A stretch of 64,000 bases of DNA from Chiloscyllium plagiosum (Eukaryota): contig NC_057718.1 in the NCBI RefSeq assembly GCF_004010195.1, positions 74,382,210 to 74,446,209 of the forward strand, in the 5' to 3' direction. Made by a program: the position numbers and the translations under genes. The notes under the pieces are model-generated. The model had not been told where the DNA came from, did no database searches, and saw only the letters and a list, made by a program, of their open reading frames with translations. Positions within the stretch are counted from its first letter, which is position 1, and each line of letters opens with the position of its first letter. Shown one piece after another: positions 2,334 to 64,000 of the stretch.

Positions 2334-5300
2334 ATAGAACTTAGAACATTACAGCGCAGTACAGGCCCTTTGGTCCATGATGTTGCACTGACCTGGGAAA
2401 GCAATCTGAAGTCCATCTAACCTATACTATTCCATTCTGGTCCATATGCTTATCCAATGACCATGTAAATGCCCTTAAAGTTGGCGAGTCTACTACTGTG
2501 ACAGGCAATGCGTTCCACGCACTTACCACTCTCTGAGGAAAGAAACTACCTCTGACATCTGTCCTATATCTATCACCCCTCAATTTAAAGCTATGTCCCC
2601 TCATGCAAGCCATCACCATCTGAGGAAAAAGGCTCTCGCTGACCACCCTATCTAAACCTCTGAATATCTTATATGTCTCAATTAAGTCACCTCTCAACCT
2701 TCATCTCTCTAATGAAAACAGCCTCAAGTCCCTCAGCCTTTCCTCGTAAGACCTTCCCTCCATACCAGGCAATGTCATAGTAAATCTCCTTTGAACCCTT
2801 TCCAAAGCTTCCACATCCTTCCTATAATTCGGTGACCAGAACTGTAAGTAGTACGTCAATAAGTAATACCACAGTTTTGTACAACTGCAACATGTCCACA
2901 TGGCTCTGAAACTCAATCCCTCTACCAATAAAAGCTAGCACACCGTAAGCCTTCTTAACAACCCTAAGGACTTGGTGGCAACTTTCAACGATCTACGTAC
3001 TTGGACATTGAGATCCCTCTGCTCATTGACACTACCAAGAATCTTACCATTAGCCCAGTACTCTGCATTCCTGTTACTCCTTCCAAAGTGAATCACCTCA
3101 CACTTTTCCGCATTAAACTCCATTTACCGCCTCTCAGTCCAGCTCTGCAGCTTATTTATGTCCCTCTGTACTCTACAACATTCCTCGTCACTATGCACAA
3201 TTCTACCCACCTTAGTTTCATTTGCAAATTTACTATCCCATCCTTCTGTACCCCCATCCAGGTCATTTATAAAAATTACAAACTGCAGTGGACCAAAACA
3301 GATCCCCTTCAGTAAATGAACTCCAGGATGAATATTTCCCATCAACCACCACCTTCCGTCTTCTCTCAGCCAGCCAATTTCTGATCCAAACCGCTAAATC
3401 ACCCTCAAATCCATACCTCCGTACTTTGTGCAATAGCCTACCATGGGGAACCTTATCAAATACCTTACTAAATCCATATATTGGTTTGGAGATGCCGGTA
3501 TTGGACTGGGGTGTATAAAGTTAACAATCACACAACCAGTATAGTCCAACAGGTTTAATTGGAAGCACACTAGCTTTCGGAGCACTGCTCCTTTATCAGG
3601 TGATAGTGGAGGACACAATTCTAAGGCACAGAATTTATAGCAAAAATTTACAGTGTGATGTAACTGAAATTATACATTGAAAAATACCTTGATTGTCTGT
3701 TGAGTCTTTTATCTGGTTGAATACCATGATAGTATCACTTCTTTCATGTGTAAATCACAAAACCGCCATTGTCATTCAGAATAGAACAGATTACCGTAAG
3801 GAAGTGTACCAACAACTGAACAACCAGGAACACTACAGGCAACTACCAGCTGATCCGACCAAAGAACACACCCGTGAATTAAACACATTGATCAGGACTT
3901 TGGATCCAGTCCTTCAGAGTTCCCTACGTGCCCTCATCCCACGTACTTCTCATGTAGGCGACTTCTACTGCCTTCCAAAGGTACACAAAGCCAACACACC
4001 AGGATCCCATCGTACTGGGCAATGGGAACCTGTGTGAGAATCTCTCCGGCTATGTTGAAGGCATCTTGAAATCTATTGTACAGGGGATCCCCAGCTTCTG
4101 TCGCGACACTACGGATTTCTTACAGACTAGTCGAACCGGGAACATTCCTCAACACAATAGATGTTTCAGCACTTTACACCAGCATCCCCCACAATGATGA
4201 CATTGCGGCAACAGCCTCAGTACTCAACACCAACAACTGCCAATCTCCAAATACCATCCTACAACTCATCCACTTTATGCTCGATCATAACGTCTTCATC
4301 TTTGACAACCAGTTCTTCATCCAGACACATGGAACAGCCATGGGGACCAAATTTGCACCCCAATATGCCAACATTTTTATGCACAGGTTAGAACAAGACT
4401 TCTCTATGCAGGATCTCCAACCAACATTATACACCAGGTACATTGATGACATTTACTTCCTCTAGACCCATGGTGAGGAGTCACTGATAAAATTACACAG
4501 TGACATCAACAAGTTTCATCCCACCATCAAACTTACCATGGACTACTCTCGACTATCTGTCTCATTCTTGGACACATGCATCTTCATCAAGGATGGGCAC
4601 CTCAGCACCACAATCTACCGCAAACCCACAGACAACCTCACAGTGCTACAATTCTTCAGCTTCCACCCAAAACATATTAAAACAGGCATCCTCTATGGAC
4701 AAGCCCTACGCGTACACCGTATCTGTTCAGATGAGGAGGAATGTGACGGGCACCTGGAAGTACTCAGAGATGCCCTCACAAAAGAATAGGGTACGATGCC
4801 CAACTCATTGACCGCCAGTTCCGATGTGCCACAGCAAGGAACCGTAATGACATCTTCAGGAGACAGACACGTGCTGCAACGGACAGGGTACCCTTCGTTG
4901 TTCAGTATTTCCCAGGAGCTGAAAAATTACGCCATGTTCTTTGTGACCTGCAACACATTATCAATGAGGATAAGCACCTCGCCAAGACCTTCCCCACACC
5001 TCCACTGCTTGCCTTTAAACAACTGCCAAACCTCAAACAAATAATTGTTCGTAGCAAGCTGCCCGGCTCTCAGGACAACTCCATACAACCCTGTCAAGGT
5101 AGGTGCTGCAAGACGTGTCAGATTGTGGACATAGATACCACCATTACACGTGGGGACACCTCACACCTTGTATGTTGCAGGTACTCATGTGACTCAGCCA
5201 ACGTTGTCTATCTTATATATTGCAGGCAAGGATGCCCTGAGGCATGGGACATTGGGGACACTGAGCAAAGGCTACGACAACGGATGAATGGGCACCGCAC

Positions 5301-5519
5301 AACAATCAACAGACAGGAGTGTTCCCTCCCAGTTGGGGAACACTTCAGCGGTCCAGGACATTCAACCTCGGACCTTCGGGTGACCATCCTTCAAGGCAGA
5401 CTTCGGGACAGGCAGCAGAGAAAAGTGGCCGCGCAGAAGCTGATAGCTAAGTTTGGTACCCATAGGGAGGGCCTCAACCGGGCCCTTGGGTTCATGTAAC
5501 ATTACAGGTGACCACCATT

Positions 5520-17686: not shown

Positions 17687-18538
17687 TCTTATAAAGCAGA
17701 GATTGACGCACCCACTGAAACTACAATCGAATCACCAAAGGGGAGCACCTCGTCCTATATTCTGTTAAAATGAGCGTGAAAAGGGGTGTAATCTGTTTTT
17801 TCAGCAACGTCTAGTGGTTAAGTAAACAAGATCCCTGACGCTCACTTTACAATCCATAAGTCACAATTTGTTTATCTAACAGTGAACAAATGTACTTAAC
17901 TATTAACAGACTGAGCAATTCCCCTCTGACTACTATTACTGAACAATGCAAGATTCTAATGGTATGCTGTTCCAATAAATTTAAGCCCCACTTATATAAC
18001 AAAACAATAGAATTTAGTCTCTCAAAATTACAGCCAGGCTACCTGTCTTCTGGAACTTTCTGTGTCTTCTCCGCTATTCTTCTGTCAGGAATCTTTCTCT
18101 GTAGTTTCTTCTTCAGGAATTTAGATGGTGCGCCACGATGGGTGGTAAATAGATGGCGCTTTCTCAAAGAGCTGAGAGCTGTTATCGCTTAGCAGATGGT
18201 AGTTGGCTTCCCCCAATTTTTCAACTGCCCCCTTCTTTATACCCTTGATGACCAATCAATATTTTTACAGTTGGATTGGTCCTAGGTTGACAAAACCATC
18301 AGATTTAAATTGAATAGATTTTTGGTAGCTGAAGACCTGATTCAAATCGATTGGCTAAATTAAAAAACACTGTTGTCTTGATAAAAACTGCTGCTTGTCC
18401 TTTCGATAAAAAATGTTTCAATCTGACTCTTTCTGTTCCTGCAAACTTTGAAGCATCTCACAAACATACATTTTAAATCTAAGCACTGAAGAAATGCCAT
18501 CATTTAAAGGGACCACATACTGCTTTCCCCAATTTACA
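17687..18538 (-). repeat. 5' LTR of the Gmr1-like Gypsy element
   Basis: Adjacent to the PBS-like site; begins TGTAAATTGGGG on the - strand; the partner LTR is not in the window. Confidence 0.6.
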
Positions 18539-18589
18539 ATTTTACAATTTTACACACACCAACTTTGCAAGACATACAAGATTCACAAA

Positions 18590-19006
18590 ATTATTGTGTA
18601 TAGGTACAGCAAGTAATTAGAAAAGCTAATGAAAAGTTATTATTAATTAAAATGTGAATTGAACACAAATGCAAAGATGTTATGCTTCATTGACAAAGCG
18701 CACTAATGAGACTACACCTGAGTACAATGGGCAGAATCGGTCACCTTATTTAACAAGGAGACAGTTTCAGAGAAGATTTACAGGACTAATGCCTGAAATG
18801 TGCAAGATGGTCTATGAGGAAACGTTTATATCAGCTGGGAGACTCTAGGTCCAGGGGTCACTGTTTAAAAATCAGGGGTCATGCATTTAAAACAGAGATT
18901 AGGTGCAATTATTTTATTTCAGAGAGGTATAAGTCTTTGTCAGAAATGTCTTCCTTAAAAGGTGGTGGATGCAGAATGTTTGAATATTTTTAAGGCAGAG
19001 GTAGAT
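18590..19006 (+). mobile_element. Old degraded CR1 ORF2 3' fragment
   Basis: aagtaattagaaaagctaatg...VVDAECLNIFKAEVD. Confidence 0.7.
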
Positions 19007-19240
19007 AAAGAACAAAGAACAATACAGCATAAGATCAGGCCATTCACCCCCTCCAAGCCTGTGCTGACACAATTTACCCTTCCATATTCAAACTGTCTTC
19101 GCTTACAGAATCCATTTCTTCTATTCCCTTCCTATTCATGTATTTGGGGAGAAAGTGAGGTCTGCAGATGCTGGAGATCAAAGTTGAAACTTTATTGCTG
19201 GAACAGCACAGCAGGTCAGGCAGCATCCAGGGAACAGGAG

Positions 19241-19276
19241 ATTCGACGTTTCGGGCACAGGCCCTTCTTCAGGAAT
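19241..19276 (-). ncRNA. Minimal hammerhead ribozyme motif (inverted pLTR copy)
   Basis: Exact reverse complement of 21736-21771. Confidence 0.8.
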
Positions 19277-19641
19277 GAGCAGAGAGTGTTCAGCAGGAGA
19301 AGATAAAAGGTAGGGAGGAGGGACTTGGAGGAGGGGCGTTGGAAATGTGATAGGTGGAAAGAGTTACAATAATCCATAATCAGTGTTTTGGCAACATTAT
19401 GGAGACTGTGTTTGTTTCTATCCAGGTCAGGAATTCTTTCTTTGAAAACCTTGGGCCAACTGTTTTTTGGATAAAGGATATTTTTCGTTCTTGAATGCAC
19501 TTTTTTCCCTCCACTGACCTGAACCGACGTACAGGCAAACTGAGTTTAGCTGCTTTGGAGGAAGGCTACACTTTTAGATGTGTTCAGGCTAAGTGAAGAT
19601 TTTTTCCCAAGGTGCTCAAACTCAACATGATTATAGATCTA

Positions 19642-20287
19642 GGGTGTAGCTTTGCTCGCTGAGCTGTAGGTTTGATATCCAGACGTTTCATTATCTGGCT
19701 AGGTAACATCATCAGTGGCGACCTCCAAGTGAAGCGAAGCTGTTGTCTCCTGCTTTCTAATTATATGTTTGTCCTGGATGGGGTTCCTGGGTTTTGTGGT
19801 GATGTCATTTCCTGTATGTTTTCTGAGGGGTTGATCGATGGTATCTAGATCTATGTGTTTGTTTTTGGCGTTGTGGTTGGAGTGCCAGGCCTCTAGGAAT
19901 TCTCTGGCATGTCTTTGCTTAGCCTGTCCCAGGATAGATGTGTTGCCTCAGTCGAAATGGTGTTTTTTTTCCTCCGTGTGTAGGGCTACGAGGGAGAGAG
20001 GGTCGTGTCTTTTTGTGGCTAGCTGGTGTTCGGGTATCCTGGTGGTTAACTTTCTTCCTGTTTGTCCTACATAGTGTTTGTGGCAGTCCTTGCATGGAAT
20101 TTTGTAGATGACGTTGGCTTTGTCCATGGGATGCACTGGGTCTTTTAAGTTTGTTAGTTTTTGTTTAAGAGTATTGGTAGGTTTGTGTGCTACTAGGATT
20201 CCAAGGGGTTTTAGTAGTCTGGCTGTCAAAAAAAAACCACCATTTCGACTGGGATAACACATCTATCCTGGGACAGGCTAAGCAAAG
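19642..20287 (-). mobile_element. Penelope-like (Poseidon type) 3' fragment with short 5' inversion
   Basis: GIY-YIG NVIYKIPCKDCHKHYVGQTGRKL; 20228-20287 is an inverted copy of about 19914-19970; hammerhead-like CCA-CTGATGA...GAAACGTC-TGG at about 19679-19718. Confidence 0.85.
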
Positions 20288-21735
20288 CCAGGCCTCCTGA
20301 GTTTCTCCAGCAATTGCTGTTTCTGTTTCAGATATCCAGCATTCACAGTTCCTTGTTTTATTTTAGCTCTTCTGCCTCTGTTGTAGATGAATTGATTGTG
20401 ATTGCTTTGATTGGTCAACAACTCCCTCATGTTATGCCAGAATGAAAAGAGGTAACACAGATGAAATGTGAGGCAGAGTTTTATATTTTCGAGAAAGTTT
20501 AATCTCCCTCCTGTTGTGATGTTCACACATAAACATGTTGATATTGGGTCAAGGTCCCTGATATCATTGTGACCAATTATGAAATTATGACCAGCAAGAA
20601 GGTTCAAAAGTCAGAAGCCTGTCCTTTTTTTTAAATGCAATTAAAGAATAGTTTATGTAGTTAGCCAGGCAATTCACTGAAAATTAATGCAGCTGTATGA
20701 TTTAATAGATTCAAGGGTCAGACAAGCAGGGAGGGATTACTACAGGATATCTCAAAGGATAAAAGCAAGCATGAGAGCAAAACACTGAGGAGTAGGAGGA
20801 GGCTGCAGCTGAGACTGCAGTAGAGCCCAGTGAAGTAGTCTAATTGTTTTTCTCATGGTTGATTTTAAGGAATAAAGGGGTCATTGTGCTGGCTCGCATG
20901 AAAGAAGGCTTAAATCAAGGAGGAGCAATTTCAGAGCATTGTGATAGCAACAGAAGTCTTGGTAATAGTCTGTTCCAGTGGAGTTTCCTTCAATGAAGAG
21001 GAGGAAAGTAGAAGGAGGGAGAGGGGCTGTTAGCAACGAGTGTCAACAGCACTCCCTCCGCGACTCCCTTGTCAGATCCACACCCCCCACCGATCCAACC
21101 TCCACTCCCGGCACCTTCCCTTGCAACCGCCGGAGGTGCAACACTTGCGCCCACACCTCCCCCCCTCACTTTTCTCCAAGTCCCCAAAGGAAACTTCCAT
21201 ATCCGCCACAGATTCACCTGCACCTCCACCCACATTATCTACTGCATCCGCTGCAGCCGGTGTGGCCTCCTCTATATTGGGGAGACAGGCCGCCTACTTG
21301 CGGAGTGATTCAGAGAGCACCTCTGGGCCACCTGGACGAACCAACCCAACCACCCTGTAGCACAGCATTTCAACTCCTCCTCCCACTCCACCGAGGATAT
21401 GCAGGTCATTGGACTCATCCACCGCCAAACCACAACAACCCGATGGTCGGAGGAGGAGCGTCTTATCTTCCGACTGGGAGCCCTCCAACCGCAGGGGATG
21501 AACTTGGGCTTCACCAGTTTCTTCCTCCCCCCTCCCCCCACCTTGTCTCCGCCGGATCCTTCCAGCCCGGCACCGCCTTCCTGCCCTGCAGTCTTCTTCT
21601 TGCCCTCTCCGCCTCCACCCTACTCCGACCTATCACCTTCACCTTTACCTCTTTCCACCTATCACATTTCCAACGCCCCTCCTCCATGTCCCTCCTCCCT
21701 ACCTTTTATCTTCTCCTGCTGAACACTCTCTGCTC

Positions 21736-21771
21736 ATTCCTGAAGAAGGGCCTGTGCCCGAAACGTCGAAT
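21736..21771 (+). ncRNA. Minimal type I hammerhead ribozyme motif
   Basis: ATTC-CTGAAGA-A-GGGC(ctgt)GCCC-GAAA-C-GTC-GAAT: stem I ATTC/GAAT, GUC cleavage triplet. Confidence 0.82.
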
Positions 21772-23744
21772 CTCCTGTTCCCTGGATGCTGCCTGACCTG
21801 CTGTGCTGTTCCAGCAATAAAGTTTCAACTATTCATGTATTTGTCAAACTGCCTCTTGAATGCTACTGTTGTGTCTGCTTCTACCACCTCCTCTGGCAAT
21901 GCATTCCAGGCACTCACCACCCTTCGTGAGAAAAACTTGCCTCTCACATCTGTTTTAAACTTCCTCCTCACACCTTGAACCTGTGTAATTGACCCCTCCA
22001 CTCTGGTAAAAGCCTCATACTTTCCACTGTATCAATGCCATTCACAATCTTATAAACTTCTTACATTGCCACTCAACCTCCTGCGTTCCAGGGAAAACAA
22101 ACACAATCTATTCAATTTTTCTTCATAGCTAAAATCCCCTTATCAGGCAACATCCTGATAAGCCTTTTCTGTACTGTCTCCAAAGCATCCACATTCTTCT
22201 AGTGTCTGTTTATGGTTATGATATTTCCCCAGAATATATCAGGTTTAGTTTGCTAGAAACAATATCTGCTCTTAATATAACAATATTACAACAACCTTAC
22301 CTACTTGCAGAAGTTAAATGAAACCTTAAAAGAAATATGTTTTCTGAGATCCACATGTAAAAAGCAAATTGAAATCTTTATGATACCTAGAAAGGCCTAT
22401 TGGATATAATAAAACATTATGAGATAGATCAATGAAACACTATTCTATTACACCCAGACAGTCTGGTTTAGCCAATATATTACTGAATTTATAGCTTCAG
22501 TTAGCGATGAAGTACATATGGTTTTGAGGGTTGTGTGATTACAGCTATCAAATGGTTGTTTTTTGTGATATGAGAATAACTGAGCTGTTATGAGTTTTTT
22601 TTCTCATTTTCCAATGTTTTATTTATAACTATCTTTAAGTCTAATGTTTCGATTGACAGCTGATTGAATGCATCTATTTCCACCTTAAACATAAGAACAA
22701 TTACAGCTTGGGCCACAACTATCAGCAGAAAAGGGCATCTTTTTGCTCTTCTCTGGCTCCATGAGATCTAAGGGCTGAATATGTCTTTTCTTTGGCGAAG
22801 TGTAAGATGACTCGAGTTTGCTGGAGTGAGTCTCATAACAAGGCTGAGCAAGGTTTTTTTTAAAAAAATTCATTCATGAGATGTGGGTGTTGCTGGCTGA
22901 TCCAAAATTAATTGCCTGTCCCTAATTGCTGAGAGAACAGTTAAGAGTCAACCACATAGCTGTGGGTCTGGAGTCATGTGTAGGCCAAACCAGGGTAAGG
23001 ATAGCAGATTTTCTTCCCTATAGGACTTTACCAAACTCTCCACATTAATTAGCACTTGAGCCCTTGTGGCAAGAATCATGCCCAGTCTCTGCCCCATCTT
23101 ACCATGAGTCATTTCCAGAGCACGTTGAAGCTCACTGGAGATCCTGGAATTCACTGGTATCCTTGGCACTCATACTGTACTTAACAGGTCAGTGTTCATC
23201 CACACAGGATCAGAGCTGCCCAACATAGTCCCTGAATTTGCCCTGGATATGAAATTGCCACTGTGGTTCTGGAGGTGGTTCCAAGATGGGACTTCCTCTT
23301 CCCCAAGGAAGAGTAGTAGAGGCCATGACATCACATCAGGCCAACCTGCTTCATGGTTGCCATCCAGGTGAGAACAGTCTCAGCTGTCCAGAAAAATACC
23401 CAGTACTTAAAGAAGAAAATCAATGCCTTTCCCCGTTAGTTGTTAATCACCCCTACCTGCAATACCACTACTCCTGCTCATCAATGCACAAAAACGCAAT
23501 GCAAGACAGTGAAGCCACAACCATCAATCAAGCAATGAGTTCAGAGATTCAGTCTCACCTAGTCTATGAGCTGGGTGCATGTGCCTGAGCGCAAGGTGTC
23601 CTTAATGTAGCTTTACATCAATAATTACTTCGACAGCCCAAGGTGTAGAATTGATGTAAGTGGATTGTAGTTGTATCATAGAGATTCATAGAGTTATGTA
23701 CATGTCACCGCAGGAGACAGAGAGTGATGGTGGGGGGTTGTTTT

Positions 23745-31160: not shown

Positions 31161-31172
31161 TTTCAGGTCTGA

Positions 31173-31348
31173 CAGCATCCGAGGAGCAGGAGAATTGATG
31201 CTTTGGGCATAAGCCCTTCATCAGGAATCAAGCTTATGCCCGAAAAATTGATTCTCCTGCTCCACGGATGCTGCCTGACCTGCTGTGCTTTCCTAGCAAC
31301 ATACTCTCGACTCTGATCTCCAGCATCTACAGTCCTCACTTTCTCCTG
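31173..31348. mobile_element. Short fold-back Penelope pLTR insertion
   Basis: Inverted plus forward pLTR halves; TSD TTTCAGGTCTGA at 31161-31172 and 31349-31360. Confidence 0.8.
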
Positions 31349-31368
31349 TTTCAGGTCTGATCATGGTT

Positions 31369-31453
31369 GAAAAGTGTGGTGCTGGAAAAGCGCAGCAGGC
31401 CAGGCAGCATCGGAGGAGCAGGAGAATCGATGTTTCGGGCATAAGCCCTTCTT
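31369..31453 (-). mobile_element. Penelope pLTR fragment
   Basis: gctggaaaagcgcagcagg...tttcgggcataagcccttct; flanked by TCATGGTT repeats. Confidence 0.75.
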
Positions 31454-31614
31454 CATGGTTTACTGGACTGGGAACATTAATTATATTATTCTCTCTATAG
31501 ATGCTGTTATACTTGCTGAGTTTCTACAGCACTTTCTGTTTTTGTTTAGGTTTAAACAACATCATCATGTGATGCCAATGAGTCATGAAATTGTGAAACT
31601 TTGCTATGGTAAAA

Positions 31615-36625: not shown

Positions 36626-37728
36626 CTAGGTGGAACCAATATTGTCAATAGAAGTTAATATTTTAGCAATAATACACTTAACTATAGCAATACCAACAAA
36701 AAGACCAATTAAAACAATAGCACCATACATAGCCATATTAATTAGCCATTTGTACCATAAGCCAAAACCCCAATCTCCCCATCCCACACCTTCATTCATT
36801 TGGTTGACAAAAGTGCGGATATTATCAATATGTCTAGCAATGTTTTCGATAAAATCAGTGACCTTCATAATGCATGTTCCTTTAATTATAGCACAAACTC
36901 CACCTTCCTTCACAACTATGTAATCGAGGGCATAGCGGTTTTGTTGGGAAAATAGGCGTAATTCTGAAAGCATGTCCCAAATTTTTATTAAGGCAGCAGT
37001 TGTCTCATTTCCCAAAATCGTGAATCTGCAAATGAGATAATTATGGTTTTGGTGACTAATAATTCCTGAAGACCCTCCTACGGAAAGAACACTAAGAGCT
37101 GCATATGCCAATGAGTGAGTTTTACTTTTTGATAGAACCTTTGGATTCTTCCATTCTGCACAAAAATCAGGAGAAACTGAACGTTTAACAGGAGAATTCG
37201 TTGCCAGGTAATTGGACAGGGAACTAGTTGGAAATAGTGTTCCTCCAGCTACAGCATGAGGAGTACTTGCTGTATTCAGGACAAGGTGGTTAGATGCCTT
37301 ATTATAACTGAAAAAAAAATCCAGGTTTAGTATAGATAATGGAGGGACCTTCCCAACAAGAAACAGACCTATCTTTGTGACTTCCTGGAGTACCTGGGTA
37401 ATCCATGATTACATAGTTTGGTCCTGAACGTAAAGGCTGAAAATTATTTAGTCCAATGAGGTGGTTCTCTTGATAAGAGACGTGGTCGACATCCCAGAAT
37501 GGTTCTATCCATCCAGTAATTGGGAAAATATTAGTGCCATTAGGGGTATCATAATGAAGGTGGGTGTTGTTACCCACCCCACAAAAGGTTTGAATACCAG
37601 TGGTAATAGAGACACATTCCTCCTTCAGGCATACGCATGAGATGCGAAGTCCTTCAGGGAAGCAATGATGACTGATACATTTTATCGTAGCACAGGGGAT
37701 AATTTTAGGCACTTTTACATAAGTGCAC
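36626..37728 (-). pseudogene. env: ERV-2 env, 5'-truncated: C-terminal SU plus complete TM with filovirus/ASLV-type internal fusion loop
   Basis: SU frame 37302-37728, frameshift in a T9 run near 37311, then open frame through PVKR|SVSPDFC...LIC..NETT..ELRLFSQQNRYALDY..GGVCAIIKGTC and a membrane anchor to the stop at 36626. Confidence 0.9.
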
Positions 37729-42559: not shown

Positions 42560-42761
42560 NNNNNNNNNNNNNNNNNNNNNNNNNNNNNNNNNNNNNNNNN
42601 NNNNNNNNNNNNNNNNNNNNNNNNNNNNNNNNNNNNNNNNNNNNNNNNNNNNNNNNNNNNNNNNNNNNNNNNNNNNNNNNNNNNNNNNNNNNNNNNNNNN
42701 NNNNNNNNNNNNNNNNNNNNNNNNNNNNNNNNNNNNNNNNNNNNNNNNNNNNNNNNNNNNN
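42560..42761. other. Assembly gap (N run)
   Basis: N bases. Confidence 1.
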
Positions 42762-44790: not shown

Positions 44791-46589
44791 TGTAGGAAGA
44801 AGACCAATGTTCTTCTCTATTCTGTCAGAGCCACTCCATTATCTTATGTTTGTTCTGTCTCTGCTACTGATCTCCCATAAGTGCTCATAATTTACCTCTG
44901 TCATTATTGCCTTCAGCATGTTCCACATCCAACACTATGAATGTTGCATACCATTGCACTGCCTAATGACTTGTTCAAGCCAGATCCACACCCGCAGTAG
45001 CTGTGTCACCAACTTTCATCTTCTATAATACCTGCCTCTCTCTCCTTCCATGAAGAAAACAGCCCCCAATAGGGTAGAAAGAGACAGGCTGGGTAGTGTG
45101 CCGCATATCATTTGATTCCTTACCCCTTATGTGGAGAGGAATTTCACTCCGACTGGCAGGAGCAGTGCCTGGATTGGAATACAGGCTGCCCTTGACTGCC
45201 AGAGACTGGTCCTGATTGAAGGCTATTCCCCCTTGACTGAGACCTGCTGACACATATGACAGCTTCCTGGCTTTGCGTCAGCACTACAGAGCATGACAAT
45301 TCAGCAGTGCTATGTGCCTAGCATCTTTGGCTAAAGAGAGAGAGTGCAAAACATTCAAAGCAGGAATGTTATGAACGCCATATAAGCTGAGTGCTCTGAG
45401 GCCAATTAAACAACACAGAAATGTAACGTGGTCCAATCCATTCAGCTGGGTGCATGTCTCTTAGTGCATAGTGTCCTTTGCAGCAACATTGCAACGATAG
45501 GTACAGTCTATGGTTGATCATTGAATTAAAGAAGTGTCGTTTAAATGGATCGGAGATGCGAATGTTAGAGTCTGGACATGGTTTGTATGTGCTTGTTGCC
45601 CATAAAGTGTGCACTATTTGGTGCATGTGCTGAAATTGTCAGGTGCTCTCTCTGGTTTCTTTGTCAAATTTTCCTGTCATGTTTTGTAAAATGTTTGGAG
45701 GCTTAATAATAATAAGGTGAATTGGCTGTTTACGAGGTGTTTGACAAAAAAATAATCTCTGTCAATTGGCTACTCACCATTGCTTGGTGAGAAGTGTGTC
45801 AAACTGCTTGTGAAAATATAAAAGATGGCACAGATTGCCTCCAATATCAAGAATGTCCTCACTGTATCTGTGTCTGATTCTGCCACACATCTCACCATAA
45901 GTCCATATTGCTCAGACCCCTATAAGACTCCCCTTTAGGTCCACTTTACTTAGCCTTTCATCACAGAACAAACCTCTCATCCCAGGGATCAATTAAGTGA
46001 AATTTTGCTGTATCTGTATATCCTAGTACTTGAATTGGCTTAGTGCTTCTGAGTGCCTCTAACTCCTTTAATGCTCTCTAATGCATGCTACTAAAACTCA
46101 CAAAATTTACTAGCAATAAGATCAATCCATCTACTGCAGGGAGAGAGCTTACTTGCTGAGTTTGTTTTCAATGGTAAGAATCTGACTTTTTTTTTGTCTC
46201 TTGCCTGATTAAGTTCACCCACACCTTGTCTCCTCCGGTAATGGAAAATCCTGCCCTATGTGTGGAACAGGAGTTTTATTTACAAATGTTTTTAAAAAAC
46301 ATCTGTTTATGTTTACAGCTTTCTGCTTTACCATCTGTCTAATAACACCCAAGCTTAATCAATAGTATTAAAAACAGTGACTTCATGTCTAACCTGAACA
46401 AATGTATTCTTTCCCTTGGAAAAGCTAAGACCTAATGTTTGGATAATTTAATTTAAAAATGTATATAAAATAACCCTTTGGCTTCAGATCATCTATTTTC
46501 TGTAAGTATAGAACTAGATTTTAAGATATGGAACTGGATTTTCATCTCCAAGGCAAGCAAGGGTTGGGAAAACTCTTGGTACTCTGTGC

Positions 46590-46789
46590 TGAAAATGTGT
46601 TGCTGGAAAAGCGCAGCAGGTCAGGCAGCATCCAAGGAACAGGAGAATCGACGTTTCGGGCATAAGCCCTTCTTCAGGAATGCCCGAAACGTAGATTCTC
46701 CTGTTCCTTGGATGCTGCCTGACCTGCTGCACTTTTCCAGCAACACATTTTCAGCTCTGATCTCCAGCATCTGCAGTCCTCACTTTCTC
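46590..46789. mobile_element. Fold-back Penelope pLTR mini-insertion with hammerhead motif (46646-46681, - strand)
   Basis: About 80-bp inverted arms; 17-bp TSD CTCTTGGTACTCTGTGC at 46573-46589 and 46790-46806. Confidence 0.88.
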
Positions 46790-47339
46790 CTCTTGGTACT
46801 CTGTGCCTACTTCAGGAGGAGTGACTCCAGAGGCATAATTTTTATTTCAGGAGGTGGGAGAGAGTTGGAGTGGGTGCAAGCTGCTATAAAGCCAACTGAT
46901 AGCAAAAAGAGCTCAGAGGGAATCACAGAGGTTGCAGAAGAGGGCTGTTTCTATTATATGCCTCAGTGATGTGGGATATTGTTCCAGTAACAATAAAAGG
47001 AGAAAGGCCCTCTATAACCCATGCTTCATACCAATGGACTGAACATTCTCCATTCATGGCACTTGGTGGCTCTCCACCCAGTCTGATGGCCCTTCATATT
47101 CCCCAGGTCAACCTTTGCTGCTTCCATTTTCATTTATCCATTGCACAGAAGCAATGAACCCTACAGTAATAGTAAAAAAAAGTTTTTAAAAATAATTTCG
47201 CTATCTTTTAAATGAACCTCTTTTCACTACAAGCCAATTAAAAATTCGATCATCTCGACCCTTTGAAGTATCAAAGCAGAAACTGAAAGCACTTAAAATG
47301 TTTATCATGTGTAAAATGTATATACAACAGACGAATGAA

Positions 47340-49877: not shown

Positions 49878-51411
49878 TCATGGGCAGGGATGTTCTCCCA
49901 GTGGATCTGTACTAGCTGAGTGGTGAGGGGGCAGTAGTATTGTGCACAGGTGGGAACAGCACAGTCGAATGGCCACGCCCAGCGCCACAATCCCAGCAAT
50001 GATAGCAATGATGGCTATTAGTCCCTGTAACAGGGCCATGCCCCATGAGCCCAGCCAGGAGGCTGCCCAGTCCCATAGGTCCCAGTGGGAATTCTGATCA
50101 TGCAGGACAGAAGCTGCCTGCTGGATATGCTGGGCCAGGTCTGTGATGTTTTCACTGGGGTCAGGAATGTCGGTGCAGCAGTCAGCATCAATGAGGGTGC
50201 ATGTGCCCCCTTTCGCAGTGAGCAGGTAGTCTGAGGCCATTCTATTTTGTGGGACCACAGTGTGAATGGCAACAGCCTCCACATTCAGCTGGGCAAGAAC
50301 CTCAGCTGTGGAATTCGCCACCTCCTCTAGAGTGGTGGCGAGTTTGTGGGCTTCCATGTGCAACTGCAGGTTTGCATAGGGGCGTTCCATCAGGAAGAGA
50401 GCTGCATCAAGGGCAGCGAGGGCTCATTTGCTGCAGGTCATGAGCTTTGGGAAGAGAGGGGACTGGGAGTGATAAATGAATGCTATAGCATACCTGCATA
50501 GCAGCTCCCAGCCCAGGACATCGGCAGCCAGGGGTAGGCCTTGTGGCCGCAGATAAAATAACTGCTGTTGTAGGTCTGGAGATGGTGGGTCTGGGTCCCT
50601 GTCGAGACAGTGAGGAAGGTGGTATTCTGGCTGATTGTGCTGAGGACCTGTAGGTTTAAAATGATGCCTTCTCCAGCGGATCAGCGTGCTGCGGGAGTTA
50701 GGAGCAGGGAATCAGTGCACCGGCTCCAACCAGCCTCCCATCCAGAAGGCTGTGTGCTTTTTAAATAGATGGATCCCGCAGGTGGCTTTTGTGTGTTAAT
50801 GTCAGCAATGGTCAGGGCTAGGGGTACATGCAAGAGGTTGTAGGCTGAGTAAAACCACCCTTTAAATTTGTCCAGGTGGTACCCTGCAGATCTCCAGCAG
50901 GCAGGGCTATTGACCCCGTAGTTGGTCATTGCCAGTGTATTTTGAGTGTGGTAATGTCAGGGGACCTGTTTGGTTCCAGTCACCACTCTGCCATGTCAGA
51001 AATGTTAAAGGGGCTGAAAGTGAAGGGAATACCCCGGTTTGAGTGGACTGGGACCCTAGTGCAGACCCAGCAGCGGGTCTGGTTAAATCGCCGAGCATAC
51101 CAATGGGCCAGTCTCAGGAAACTGTTGGTCTGCAAGTCACAATGGATTATTAAATGTCTCGCCCCTTGTCTCTGTTTACCAGCAAGCCACAGTGTGACGG
51201 TCAGACAGGTCAGGCTGAGGGTGATGATGGTGATGGCTGCGGCAAGCAGTTGGATCCGTCTTCGGTGTTCCGAGCGGTGCCTTCTCCTGTCTGGTCCCTG
51301 TTTATTGAAGGTGGAGCTCTCTTGCAGTGGGCAGTATGAGTCCATGCGGGCCATCCTTCCACTTTTACAGCTATCCGGGTCATCAGCAGGATCAGGTATG
51401 GGCCGTTCCAA
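49878..51411 (-). pseudogene. env: ERV-1 env (gamma-type), disrupted
   Basis: Signal region, SU CWVC motif (NQTRCWVCTRVP), TM immunosuppressive domain QNRMASDYLLTAKGGTC, CX6CC (CTLIDADCC), membrane anchor; stops and frameshifts. Confidence 0.92.
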
Positions 51412-53374
51412 CTTGGGGAGAGAGAGTCCTTTTCCAGTGATTTTATCATGCCTTTGTTCCCGGGTCAGAACACATGAATTGGCACTGGTTGGGGTGTGGG
51501 CAGCATATCTCTGACCTCGTCGTGCTTTACATTAATGCTTCTGCTGAGGGCTTGTATATAAATCAGCACAGCCTCTTGTGTCCATGGTGAGGAGTTGTGT
51601 CCGTGCAGAGCATTGGGGGCCTGGTAACGGGTGGGCATAGCTCACCCCATGAGCACCTAAAAAGGGTGAGTCCATTCATGCAGTTTGCCTGGTGACGTAT
51701 AGTGTAAAGGACTAGTGGTAAGGCATCCGGCCAGATCAGTCCTGTTCTTCGGTGATCTTGGTCAGTGTGGTTTTAAGGGTGCCATTCATCTGTTTGACCA
51801 ATGACTGGGGTTGGTATGGATGTGATGTCACCATGGTATCCCTAGAGCCTTACCAGTCATGAGCCTAGCAGTGAAGTGAGTCCCTCTGTCTGTCTCTATG
51901 TTACTGGGGACCCTGAATCTGGGGATGATATCCCTTAGGAGGCATTTTACCACTGTCCATACATCATCCTTTCTTGCGGGGAATGCTTTCACCCATTTAG
52001 AGAATATGTCGATGATGACAAGGATGTATTTGTAACCCTGTTTTTGGGGTATGTGAGCAAAGTCAAAGTCAATCTGCAAGTGGCTGAAAGGCCCCACAGG
52101 AACTGGTAAATGGTCATACCTGGCAATAGGCTTCCTTGCATTGTTTTGCAGGCAATTGAAGCACTGTGACAGCAGGGCTTGGGCAGGGGCAGCGAATCCT
52201 GGTGCATATTAGAATTGTGTGACAGTATGTAACATACCTCTATTGCCCATGTGGCCAATGCCATGGGCTACTAGGGCCAGCATGTGTAAGTGGGCTCTTG
52301 GGCAAATGATGCAGCCATCAGGGTATAGGAAAGGTGACTGCGTGACCCCAATGAGGCCCTAACTGTCCTTTTCTTGTGGTGGAGCAGCCTGTTGGGCAGC
52401 TTGCACCGTCTCCAAGGTGTCAGGGTATACTGGAGCCTTCACTATTCTGGGGGCCTGCAGGACGGAGGTGGTGGGGTGCAGTTTGGCTTCCTGGGCCTCT
52501 GTGTCAGCTGAGGCATTCCCGAGGGTGACAGGGTCAGTGGTAGAGGTATGGGCACCGCATTTTATAATCACTAGGGCAGAGGGTAACAGGATTATTTCCA
52601 GGACGTTGGAGATTAGTGCTGCGTGTTGTGGTAGCCACCTGCTGACGTGATGAAACCTCTCTGTTTCCAGCGTGTGCCAAAGTCGTGAACAACTCCAAAG
52701 GCATACCTGGAGCCAGTGTAAATGTTTACTGTGTGACCTTTTGCAATGATACAAGCCCTAGTAAGTGCAAACAGCTCCTTAGTCTGTGCGGATGTGCCAT
52801 CTGGGAGCACAGCTGATTAGAGGATTGTGAAATGGGTGCATATGGCATACCCTGCCAGTGTGCAGTGGCCCAAGGGCCTGAAGGAGGACCCATCCGTGAG
52901 AGTATGAGGTTAGGGTTTCTAAAGAGGTTTCAGAGAGATCAGGGCATAGGGTGACAACTTGCTGGACAAGGTCTAAACAGTCATGGTTGTTCGCAATGGC
53001 ATTCTGAGTGAGTGGGAGCAGGGAGCTGGGGTTCAGTGCAGGGGCACGTTGTAGGGACAGGTTGACTTTGGACAGTAAAGCGACCTCATATCCAGTTTTC
53101 CGGGTGGCAGTGAAATGTTGGGTTCCTGCTGAATTTAACAGCAGGGAGACCAAATGGGGAACTAAAACAGTGCATGGGTGATCCAGCACGATGGGGGTGG
53201 CCTTTTCTACCGTTACCGTGGCTGCTACCACAGCTCTTAGACATGCTGGCATTCCCCTTACAACAGGCAGTAAGTGTACAGAGTAAAAAGCAAGAGGGCG
53301 CTGGAGATTCCCATAGAGCTGTGTTAGGATGCGGATGCAAACTCCTCGGATTCATCAACATAGAGCTAGAAGGG

Positions 53375-55959: not shown

Positions 55960-57365
55960 TTAGAGAGGTGTATTGAGACCACCTGTAAAACCTCCCTCTC
56001 GCGGCAGCCCCAGTTAGTTTCTGGGGCATGGGGGGAGGGATTGTTCATGGTGTAGGCAGCCTGGCGAGGCTGCCACTGTGGGCTGGTGTGCTGCTGTCAT
56101 GCCTGTGGTATGTGGGGAAGCGTGGAGGGGCCTGGGTGACCTTGCCTGCATCCTGACCAGCACTGTCTAACCTAGTGTCCCGATTTCCCACAGTTCCGGC
56201 ACTGTCCTTTTTGAATTCCCCTAGGTTGCTGTACTGGCCTGGTGGTATCTTTATGGTGGTCTAGTTGTGCGATTTGGGGGAATGCCCTCTTCTGTTTTGG
56301 CGTGGTGAACAGCCCGTTTATGTCCAAGTTACTAAGTGTGGTTAAAGTGTCCCAGGCAGTCATTGTTTTCCAAGTGAGATTGTGCAACTTGTAAATGTGA
56401 GCATATGTAGGGAGCATTCAGTTCACTAGGGTCTGCACGACAAGCTTTTCATTCTCTGCTAATAGAATGCCCGCTGAGGAGTCCCAGACCTCCCTAAAGC
56501 AGGCAATGAAATCAGGCAAGGGCTCGTCTGCTCACTGCAGACACTGGGTAACAGCACCAAAGTTGGCGTGCTGTCTTGCACTGGCCTTTATTGCATCCTT
56601 CATGGGTGCTGTCCAGCCGTTTCTCCTGGTCTGCAGCGGTGTTCCAGGGTCGGATGGGCAAGTCAATAGCAGGGTGAATGGTTGCTTGGTGGGTCCCATA
56701 TGTGAGCTGCAATAAGGTCTGCATATCTTGGGGCAGACAGTTGTAGATAGAGGAAATTTGGAGTAGCCAGTTGTAGAATGGGAGTGGTTGCTTCAATGGG
56801 TCTGGGGCATCTTGTAGCATGACCCGGACCTCTGCGTGGGTCCAGGGCTTATCGAGGGGAGTGGAACCAATCATGATGCGGGGAAAATGGCAGTCGGTGC
56901 CCTGGCTTTTTAGGACAGCAGTGCATCTGGGCTATCATTTGTGGTGGGCAGTGGTGGTGTTTCAGATTGCCCAGTGGCTGCTGTATTCTGCTGCAAGCTC
57001 CCTGTGGGTTGCGCAGCCACTTCATTCAGCAGAGGGTCCAGCTCTGGAGCCAGTAGGGGACGCCTCGGGAACTGTGGGGCAGTGTCCAGGGTTACTGGGG
57101 TCTCCGCCATTGGGGAGGTTATTGTGGCGGTCTTTCGCCTTAGAGGGCTGTCCTGGAACTTTGCAAGACACTGCAGCATGTAAACAGTGTCCCAGGAGGG
57201 ATCCCCGTGCCCCCCACCTGTGATGGCTGTGGTCCAGTAATCAATCTTATCAAATTTAAAGGGCCCCCTCCGATGGCCAATTTCCTTGGGACCAGGTGTA
57301 AAAGTCTCCGGTAAAGGGGATAACGTAATGCTGTCCCCTGTCTGTTTTAGTACGGTGTTAGCCAT
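55960..57365 (-). pseudogene. gag: ERV-1 gag, disrupted
   Basis: MANTVLKQ.. start, capsid-like KPWTHAEVRVMLQDAPDPLK, MHR-like Q*ADEPLPDFIACF, zinc knuckle CRNCGKSGH*VRQC. Confidence 0.85.
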
Positions 57366-58319
57366 TCCCCCGAATCGCACAACTAGACCACCATAAAGAC
57401 ACCACCAGGCCAGTACAGCAACCTAGGGGAATTCAAAAAGGACAGTGCCGGAACTGTGTAACAAGAGCAACTCTTACCTTTGTCTTGAAGATCACGTATT
57501 TACCATGCCTCTTCAATGTCGCCTTGTTCATCTTCAGCCATTCTCACAGCTGGCACTTCTAGCAGAGGGTGATTTCCGTGCACCCATGGCGTACTGGACG
57601 TCCTGGGTTGACTGCTAAGTTCTGCACTTTGGCTTTCAAGGAAAGACATAGAGAGCATTCACAGAAACACACAAGCAGTAAGTGATTGACAGAACAAGCA
57701 ATAAAAGGGCAATTGAACAAGTGATCGCTGACTGCAACGTAAACAAACACTTAACTGCTGGATAAACACACTTAGACCAGACACCTGAAACTGACAAGAC
57801 AAGCAATCGGTAACTGCAAGACGAACAGACACACCTAAAACAAGCACTCAGAAAACACAGGACAGAAAACATTGAACAGATGAGGCCCCCGTCGATTTCC
57901 TTTGAGCTGAGAATCTCTTAGGTTTGAAACAAATACTTAATTGGTGACCTCTCCTTCTATCTTGTCAGGCTTCCGTTGCTTGTCCGTCTTTCCCCTGGCT
58001 GGATCAGGATCGCGGCACAAGCCCTGCCTCAAGTTGGATTGCGCTTCTGCTGAATTGGTTAAAATTTAGTTGACCAATTTAGGAACTTACCCGTCTACCT
58101 TATCAGGCTACGTCCGTAGTTGCTGAACGCTGAATTGCCGCAGTAGTGAGATTATAATTGTGTGATTATAATATAATATAATATAATAAAATAACTTAAC
58201 CTACACACCCCTCAGTCATCCAGCCTTTTGCTACAGGTCTGACCCACAGGGGCAGGGCTAGCCACTAGGTCTGAATTGGGCAAAATTTAGATCCAAGTTT
58301 GCTTCCCTGTGGAGATTAG

Positions 58320-61944: not shown

Positions 61945-64000
61945 TGAAATAAATCTACAGAGGCCAGCATGACATCACCAAGTCATTCTTTATTGACATA
62001 TAGAGAGTCCAGCGCCCTCAGAGTCAGATCTCAAGTGTATCAGGATGTCTGACACTCCTGTCTATATCTATCAACCAGGGTTCTCTCCTTGGACCAGATT
62101 TACAGCCCTATTCAGGGAACCCATATTCTAAGAGGTACACTTGGTTGACCTCATTACAATCGCTACATCCTTTCTCCCCTGAGTCTGAGGGCACAGGCTA
62201 GTTTTTTTTGTAGTTGATACTTTATTGCTGGAACAGCACACCTGGCCTGCTGTGCTGTTCCAGCAATAAAGTTTCAACTTTGATCTCCAGCATCTGCAGA
62301 CCTCACTTTCTCCTCGTAGTTTTTTTTGTAGTATCACCCAGAGTGTTATAGCACCAGGTCAGGTTCCTCTAGCTCTGTTATGGGCAGCATGGAACACACA
62401 GTAACTTGTATCTTGCACTGGAGCACATAGGGAGAAATTTATTCTCTTCTTCAGGTGGCAAAAGTGTTGAGGCAGTGACATCTGCTGTGTCCATCTTGGA
62501 TTCCAAGGTATCTTCAATGCTTGATGGACAGGGAGAACATATGGGTTTCAGAAGAGTTGGAAAGGCTGTTGAGGAGCCAGGCACCATTTGTGATTTTGTA
62601 GCTTTCATATGGTCCATATGCTTATTTAGGACCGTTGAACGTACCCAAACTTTATATGTCACAGGTTGTGACCTCACATTGACTATGCCTCTTCTCCATA
62701 CAAGGCCATTCCCGAGGTGCCTATACCAAACTTCATCCCTTGAAGTAAACTGTCTCTTTCATTTAGTGGAGTCTTATGTCCAGTATTGGCATTTCTGATG
62801 CCATTTCAGCCTCCCCCGCCAGGTCCAGGAAGATCAGATTTAACCTGGTGGAGAGTCTTCTCCTCATTAACAACTCTGCTGTAACTATTATTGAAGTTGC
62901 ATGAGGGGTGATCCTATAATCAAATAGGAACCAGGGTAGTTTAGTATCTAGTGAAATTGTAGGCTATTTCTTTAAGCCTACCTTCAAAATTTGGATTTCT
63001 TTTTCTGCCAGGCCATTGGATGATGGATGGTATGGAGTTGTTTTCTATTTCAAATACCATTCAACTTTAGGTAACACTTCAATTCCCTCCTGGTAAACAA
63101 TGGTCCTTTATCTGTGATCAACACTTCCAGGAATCTGTGTATCACAGAAGATGCATACAGTTTTTTTTTGTTGTCCCTGTGTTTGACGAATAATCTCTAC
63201 GCACATCCAGCTATTTTGAGTGGGCATCCACAATGAACATAGAGCTCATAAAAGGATTTGCATAGTCAGACTCCCAGGTTAACACAGCCACTCTCATGAA
63301 TGTGGGGGAGCTGCTGGCAGTAATCATTGTCCTTGAAGGCAAACTGGGCACTAACACTGCTATGTTGGCATTCAATCCTGGCCACCAGACATAGCTTCTC
63401 ACCTATATCTTCAGTTTGGAAACCCATGAATGACCCTCGTGGAGTTCAGCCCGTATCTGATGACGACCTTTGCTCAGAGCAATCACTGTTGCTCCCCATA
63501 CTATTATGGCATCCTGTACTGTGATCAGGTGTCTCTAAGTCCAAAAAGGTTGTAATGGCACTTTGGCTTCACCCATCACCACCAGCTGTTTCTGTTTTTC
63601 CAGGACTAGATCTTTGTTTCTAAAGTCTGATATTGTCAGTTGTGACTGGGAGTATGTCAGAAAATTTAAAATGATTACAGAGTTTTCCAGTAATGGTACT
63701 ACCTGTGGTGTATCTGCCAATGGGAGTGGCTCAATGAATCAGCATTTGCTTCCTGATGGTGTTCAAACTTGTAATTATATGCACTTAGTATTACAGCCCA
63801 TCACTGAATTTTCCCTGATGCTATGGGCAGTGTGGCCTTGTCCTCTTTACATAGACCTAGCAGGCAGTTGTGGTTTGTTAATATTACAAATTTACATCCA
63901 TAAAGATATTGGTGGAATTTATTGACTCCAAATATGACTGCCAAACCTTCCTTCGCTGTCTGGGCGTGTTTATGCTAAGCATTAGTTAAAGTCCTGAATG
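61945..64000 (-). mobile_element. Gypsy element 3: 3' LTR (61945-62167), PPT, degraded integrase and RNase H running off the window
   Basis: RSYVWWPGLN, IVDAHSK, PYHPSSNGLAE, VTYKVWVRSTVLNKHMDH; the LTR has TG/CA ends. Confidence 0.85.
62215..62316. mobile_element. Fold-back Penelope pLTR-tip insertion (no hammerhead retained)
   Basis: actttattgctggaacagcaca..tgtgctgttccagcaataaagt hairpin; 16-bp TSD TAGTTTTTTTTGTAGT at 62199-62214 and 62317-62332. Confidence 0.85.

Follow-up and report, generated by a model that had tools for sequence, protein, structure and literature searches.

How did about 1.7 kb of DNA that does not belong to a Penelope-like element (PLE) come to lie between that element's own ends? 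The question is posed by positions 19147–21828 of the window, a 64,000-nucleotide stretch of the Chiloscyllium plagiosum genome, where a first-pass annotation had recognized inverted, hammerhead-bearing element ends enclosing what it took to be captured DNA. The block is a single PLE insertion (Table 1). The target site duplication (TSD) that flanks it is identical at 15 of 15 positions, and its 15-mer occurs in the window only at these two places; the chance of such a duplication is ∼3e-9 per position and ∼5e-6 over a generous 40 × 40 box of positions. When the block and one copy of the TSD are taken out, the flanks give an ungapped alignment through the junction with another of the window's CR1 copies, and local alignments cross the rejoined target junction for eight of the eight CR1 regions tried; the perfect TSD and the continuous CR1 that had been claimed for the site thus both hold. 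It is the TSD, the colinear CR1 target, arms that differ at 1 of 180 positions, and a one-sided tail that together identify 19147–21828 as one PLE integration. As in EN+ PLE units, the TSD surrounds the whole unit, and an inverted 5'-truncated copy is found with a tail of 30–40 bp at one end only; at its 3' end, the right arm has 2 bases in common with the TSD. The insertion is recent, and two cargo-free PLE insertions of the same build are present elsewhere in the window (62199–62332 and 46573–46806, with TSDs of 16 and 17 bp).

Table 1. Features of the insertion and its target, in window coordinates
Feature	Position	Strand	Remarks
Left TSD	19132–19146	+	Inside the 3' end of an old CR1 (CR1 on the minus strand)
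PLE "tail"	19147–19183	-	35–37 bp, left arm only
Inverted 5'-truncated arm	19184–19363	-	Minimal hammerhead motif, core at 19272
Cargo, unique host DNA	19364–19639		19363/19364 is the new junction
Cargo, old 5'-truncated Poseidon-type PLE	19640–20227	-	GIY-YIG end, stop codon, own hammerhead core at 19715
Cargo, inverted duplicate of Poseidon 19914–19970	20228–20286	+	59 bases, 4 internal mismatches in 58
Cargo, tail of an older PLE family	20287–20366 (end approximate)	+	Also depth bin 20285–20389
Cargo, unique host DNA	20367–21049		Adjoins the truncated element at the donor; other DNA follows in the relative
5'-truncated Neptune-like body	21050–21648	+	CX4CxxC linker, GIY-YIG end, then 3' UTR; without RT
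Direct arm (part of pLTR)	21649–21828	+	Minimal hammerhead motif, core at 21740; ends without tail
Right TSD	21829–21843	+	First 2 bases identical to those that come next in the element

The description of the ends as near-identical inverted pLTRs is accurate for the 180 bases that the two arms share, in which the only mismatch is at 21687/19325, but the arms are unequal in length, the left one carrying the additional 35–37 bp of the tail. A one-sided tail is a described PLE feature (PMC3846280); the available text of PMC8557442 gives its length as 30–40 bp on one end of the insertion, and in vitro work on an anole Poseidon element, in the part of PMC11167929 that is accessible, places two internal RT start sites so that they define the tail stretch. 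The hammerhead motif is identical in the two arms and, as read from the sequence, has the hallmarks listed in the portions of PMC4209133 available for minimal type I hammerheads of PLEs (the conserved core, an extra base between 9 and 10.1, G10.1-C11.1, a short helix I, a palindromic 15.2-16.2, and no helix III loop), with a helix II of 4 bp in the present case. An Rfam search returned no hammerhead at the gathering score, however, and the predicted monomer fold was no better than that of shuffled sequences; the hammerheads, called intact in the first-pass annotation, therefore appear to be intact as motifs only. Such minimal motifs did not cleave as monomers in the experiments covered by the same portions of PMC4209133. 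Because the two arm motifs lie on opposite strands, any one transcript carries only one of them.

The element body begins at 21050 rather than at 21047, and its 5' truncation lies downstream of the RT. Its reading frame is broken by a frameshift at ∼21160 and a stop at 21306–21308. The translation contains a CX4CxxC linker, in keeping with the CX2-5CxxC that precedes EN in Neptune and Nematis, which places the body with these two clades without separating them; we use the label Neptune for it. A GIY-YIG motif is visible in the translation, although the 47-residue piece matches Pfam PF01541 only at E = 0.03 and 15 bits (below the 22.6 cut-off), and BLASTP relates the body to an RT+EN remnant in the window at E = 6e-4.

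The 1,686 bases between the left arm and the body are, as had been proposed, not part of the carrier element: they consist of unique DNA with pieces of older PLEs, among which the Poseidon-type fragment and the older, third pLTR tail had been correctly recognized. In the Poseidon fragment, RT is absent, the ∼35 residues before EN hold no Cys linker, and the Pfam match (E = 0.0044) is below cut-off; its 3' junction is also present in the relative. That the cargo predates its carrier is first indicated by the inverted Poseidon duplicate inside it, which is more diverged from its source than the outer arms are from each other (4/58 versus 1/180; Fisher p 0.015–0.05). No repeat flanks the interior, the longest exact match between its two ends being 7 bp; the TSD or terminal repeats and the multiple copies that mark a separate transposable element are not found. 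Within the 64-kb window there is no second copy of the cargo (the best blastn match covers 30 bases at E = 0.046; nhmmer gave no match), and an exact 30-base cargo pattern gave 0 matches in metagenome contigs. Six-frame translation of the cargo yielded only short frames, and an exon-like frame among them (43 codons, 20844–20972) has no Pfam match at E ≤ 1. Since no gene was found in the cargo, we claim no functional effect of the insertion, and the earlier term "cargo vehicle" overstates what is a single event.

The origin of the cargo can be read from public contigs. Among 24 sequencing runs, 8 from this species (organism A) hold 0.69–0.82 of the interior's words and 6 from a relative (organism B) hold 0.36–0.40; contigs from four of the 24 (X1 and X7 of organism A, X9 and X11 of organism B) were compared with positions 18500–21640. 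The per-contig results given here are from 32 listed of 165,311 pieces, and it should be noted that contigs drop paths. In all four runs, the contig covering the left part of the cargo begins to match exactly at 19364 and ceases to match at 19666–19669, and the 155–162 letters that it carries before 19364 match nothing in 18500–21640; plus- and minus-strand records agree on the side on which these letters lie. This left part shows 0 differences from the window in organism A and 11 differences plus 3 gaps in organism B. Because the match takes in the first 27–30 Poseidon bases in both species, the Poseidon insertion predates the A/B split.

The right part of the cargo behaves differently in the two species. 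The X1 contig matches 20261–21076 with 0 differences and 3 letters left over; its 27 matching letters past the joint and the 3 left over put it one short of our 31-letter rule for bridging. The X7 contig, which matches 20300–21075 with 2 differences and has 54 letters past the joint, passes this rule, and carries behind 21049 a 28-letter insertion, 27 letters of which repeat 21050–21076, that is absent from the window. In both runs of organism B, the corresponding contigs stop at 21051 and continue into 156 other letters (21 differences, 2 gaps). Overall, the window cargo differs from X1 at 0 of 1,122 bases (306 + 816; 95% upper bound 0.27%) and from organism B at 32 of ∼1,072 bases (3.0%). 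Contig depth is 4–28 in unique bins versus 1e4–5e6 in repeat bins, values to be read as orders of magnitude only. In the two samples of organism A, neither these depths nor the right-hand contigs, unbroken over 804–819 bases, lend support to a cargo family of many hundred copies. The X11 contig has 567 other letters to the left of 20286, indicating that the organism A locus is rearranged near this point relative to organism B. In X1, the right-hand contig is 2.8 times deeper than the left-hand one (26.6 versus 9.46; the ratio is 0.9–1.2 in the other three runs); contig depth is no measure of copy number, and this excess is not used here.

We infer that the right-hand contigs of organism A derive from the donor locus, since a path like that of organism B, had it been present in organism A, would break or divert them, just as happened on the left through the donor path. 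No contig of organism A among the matches listed continues past 21051 in the manner of organism B, and neither the window's own junctions (19146/19147 and 19363/19364) nor an empty allele is found among the 32 pieces listed of 165,311. As the organism A contigs enter the element and those of organism B do not, the joint at 21050 dates from an earlier insertion into the donor site, which leaves the left joint as the only new one. The 2-base overlap at 21050–21051 belongs to this older insertion; at 19363/19364, no overlap with the donor flank is seen. There are thus three states: a site without the element in organism B, the same site with a copy 5'-truncated at 21050 in organism A, and, in the window, a copy of that element together with 1,686 bases of its flank, inserted elsewhere into a CR1. 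In the manner of a 5' transduction, the upstream DNA enclosed by the TSD matches the 5' flank of the source copy, and the source copy is absent from the ancestral site as represented by organism B. With the donor locus in hand, and with an interior that is neither family consensus nor a later transposable element, the proposal that host DNA was captured during PLE integration is borne out.

The carrier's family can be followed in the same runs. In the 3' UTR bin 21545–21640, contig depth, taken as an order of magnitude only, is 523,610 and 325,770 in organism A versus 1,129 and 641 in organism B, which fits a spread of the body subfamily in organism A. Among the matches listed, family contigs share another sequence before 21050 (30 in X7, 41 in X11). 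Some of the body's differences from the family pool may be subfamily traits. High-share differences from this pool, among the 40 of 85 rows listed, number at least 5 in 21050–21640 and none in the left arm; together with the mismatch at 21687, this pattern would be in keeping with priming of the left arm on a different, consensus-like RNA.

In our preferred reading, to which we assign a probability of roughly 0.55, the insertion arose by reverse transcription of a read-through RNA from the dead donor copy, that is, by a 5' transduction mobilized in trans. After the A/B split, a Neptune-like copy would have inserted at the donor site, truncated at its 5' end at 21050, and then decayed. A transcript of the host or of an upstream element would later have run through the cargo into this copy on the plus strand, whereupon the protein of an active element, presumably supplied in trans, would have bound the pLTR within the read-through RNA and cut the CR1 with a 15-nt stagger. 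Priming at the tail-less internal start would have led to the copying of 779 nt of element and 1,686 nt of flank; at the other DNA end, priming at the tail-bearing start would have yielded 217 nt, perhaps from a different family RNA, and the two cDNA ends would then have been joined bluntly at 19363/19364. That the cargo–element joint already existed at the donor site indicates that the truncated element travelled together with its upstream flank, and a body that is broken next to an unchanged cargo makes it most likely that the element decayed at the donor and moved in trans. PLEs are known to keep introns and to move host DNA in trans (PMC3846280), and PLE RT, according to the accessible text of PMC11167929, initiates in vitro at two internal positions, with extension of both strands; because it starts inside the RNA, no polyA end is needed. 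As the window lacks the 28-base tandem copy of X7, this reading has to assume either a slip or another allele of the donor.

The structure of the insertion alone fits RNA and DNA templating alike, and the strongest competitor, which we regard as possible but appreciably less probable than the read-through transcript, is a copy templated by DNA. Here, both cDNAs would have begun on ordinary family RNA, and the right-hand one would have annealed to the chromosomal donor copy and been extended, by RT or a host repair polymerase, through the 5' joint and the 1.69-kb flank before the ends were joined. This would yield the same structure, the shared 21050 joint included, and a switch into the first of the two 28-base repeats would account for the duplication that the window lacks; L1 insertions containing sequence templated by genomic DNA are reported in the available part of PMC11702581. 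The donor, however, is absent from the 64-kb window and so lies at least ∼19 kb upstream or 42 kb downstream of the insertion, and the precise 15-bp TSD and one-sided tail are those of an unprocessed PLE integration, although they are compatible with a switch in mid-course.

Much less probable is a partial assembly chimera, in which the Poseidon and Neptune repeats led the assembly to link a real insertion with a shorter cargo to the donor. No contig among those listed spans the block or shows the new junction, the window has an N gap elsewhere, and the cargo is identical to the donor, all of which such a chimera would accommodate. It would leave unexplained, on the other hand, why, at the 19363/19364 joint, the cargo side offers an assembler no repeat to slip on, why TSD and tail fit one event, and why the window differs from the X7 donor contig by the 28-base duplication; even then, capture of at least the left part of the cargo would remain.

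Slightly less credible still is a jump of the RT from element RNA to unrelated host RNA or DNA at both cargo ends, as the first-pass annotation's appeal to template switching would imply. The cargo does lie exactly between two 5'-truncation points, and L1 insertions built from two RNAs are reported (PMC11702581, available part), but both of the other samples of the species that were compared have contigs with the cargo–body joint, and on the left side these samples show donor flank; the joint therefore predates the insertion, unless the right-hand contigs stem from the window's own insertion and contig cleaning has removed the other path. Later entry of the interior as a separate mobile element or as part of the family consensus, to which its PLE fragments might point, is very improbable and largely refuted by the donor locus (orthologous DNA, 3% diverged, in the relative), by the lack of a TSD or terminal repeat of its own, by the low depth of its unique parts, by the different family sequence before 21050, and by an inner duplicate older than the arms.

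The ancestral site in the relative, the donor in other samples of the species, and the product in the window are the three states needed for a test of mechanism, and the case bears on two questions, namely how PLE inverted ends are built and how PLEs transport host DNA. Reverse transcription of PLEs begins at internal positions of the RNA and depends neither on polyA nor on a promoter of the element, so that dead remnants could be usable as handles. We tentatively suggest, as a generalization that is rather doubtful at this stage, that each dead PLE 3' remnant in transcribed DNA might allow active elements to copy kilobases of unspliced upstream host sequence into new sites, with arms primed on two RNAs. 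If true, PLE-rich vertebrate genomes would gain a standing source of small, intron-bearing duplications that resemble segmental duplications.

We found no published 5' transduction by a PLE that combines a traced donor with an outgroup in a literature search made without most subscription journals, including those with the early Penelope structure papers, and the available part of a recent preprint (bioRxiv 10.64898/2026.07.22.740005) contains nothing on capture. With the canonical EN+ PLE unit, as far as it is described in the accessible sections of Craig et al. (2021; PMC8557442) and Frangieh et al. (2024; PMC11167929), the insertion shares the inverted 5'-truncated copy, the tail of 30–40 bp at one end, the hammerhead in the pLTR, and the two RT start sites; it differs in that 1.69 kb of DNA foreign to the element separates the two 5' ends. 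SVA and L1 are known to undergo 5' transduction (Kirby et al., 2025; PMC12593883, available part), and as in those cases an upstream flank travels inside the TSD and identifies the source copy; unlike in SVA and L1, as presented there, the source here is a truncated, coding-dead PLE, there is no polyA tail, the product is capped by an inverted second arm, and an upstream promoter is presumed. The L1 insertions of PMC11702581 likewise have foreign sequence where two extended DNA ends meet, but their templates lie near the integration site and are not described, in the portion of that paper available, as including an older element copy.

The closest precedent is the rotifer Adineta vaga, in which host DNA lies between Penelope pLTRs with TSDs, including an NRPS gene, non-coding captures, and Pen1 spacers (Arkhipova, Yushenova, and Rodriguez, 2013; PMC3846280; also reviewed, as far as its available text goes, in PMC6431247). 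In both cases, PLE ends, an inverted copy, a tail, and a TSD enclose host DNA, and movement is, or in the present case probably was, in trans; for A. vaga, an empty allele was shown (PMC3846280). The NRPS cargo lies between two direct pLTRs without the element interior; unlike it, the cargo described here sits on the upstream side of a 5'-truncated body, where the inverted arm is joined on, and the host is a vertebrate. Capture of host DNA by PLEs is thus already published for a rotifer; what the present locus adds, unlike the A. vaga insertions, is a well-resolved tracing of both the donor and the pre-insertion state.

In all four contig sets compared with 18500-21640 (X1 and X7 from this species, species A; X9 and X11 from the related species B), the Neptune-like body of the carrier insertion (19147-21828) shows clustered differences from the commonest form of its family among the pieces listed, with loose ends behind 21130 and 21164, a pattern that suggests a rare subfamily or a chimeric donor. 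An X7 contig bears a tandem copy, 28 bases long, of the body start that is absent from the window, and an X1 contig likewise diverges from the window past 21076.

Within the cargo, the inverted Poseidon piece derives from the ORF interior rather than the 3' end. Because an X11 contig carries 567 other letters left of 20286, the joint at this position seems to be specific to species A. A Pfam search with the 43-codon frame gave no match, and the frame is probably due to chance.

Features of the window by position
Position	Feature	Arms and tail	TSD
4070-5499	Relatively long remnant of a different Penelope-like element (PLE); RT motifs, GIY-YIG end with Cys-linker
20228-20286	Short inverted piece of cargo Poseidon
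20844-20972	Open frame in cargo, exon-like ends
21050-21077	Body start
21131-21175	Clustered differences in body
31164-31547	Cluster of at least three PLE ends	Both orientations
36626-37408	Broken frame
42560-42761	Assembly gap (202 N) within CR1 copy
46573-46806	Two PLE copies head-to-head, hammerhead as pivot	Tail on one arm	17 bp
49878-53351	Broken frame
56512-57422	Broken frame
62199-62332	Short PLE insertion without cargo	Inverted arm without tail, direct arm with tail	16 bp

The short insertion at 62199 belongs to the same subfamily as the carrier, matching its left arm at 98.6% over 73 bases, and both of its arms end short of the hammerhead; the head-to-head pair represents a related subfamily. 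The cluster at 31164 also contains an older PLE tail resembling that of the cargo (20287-20366). The broken frames at 36626, 49878 and 56512, inspected by eye, resemble envelope, integrase/pol and gag pieces of endogenous retrovirus-like elements.
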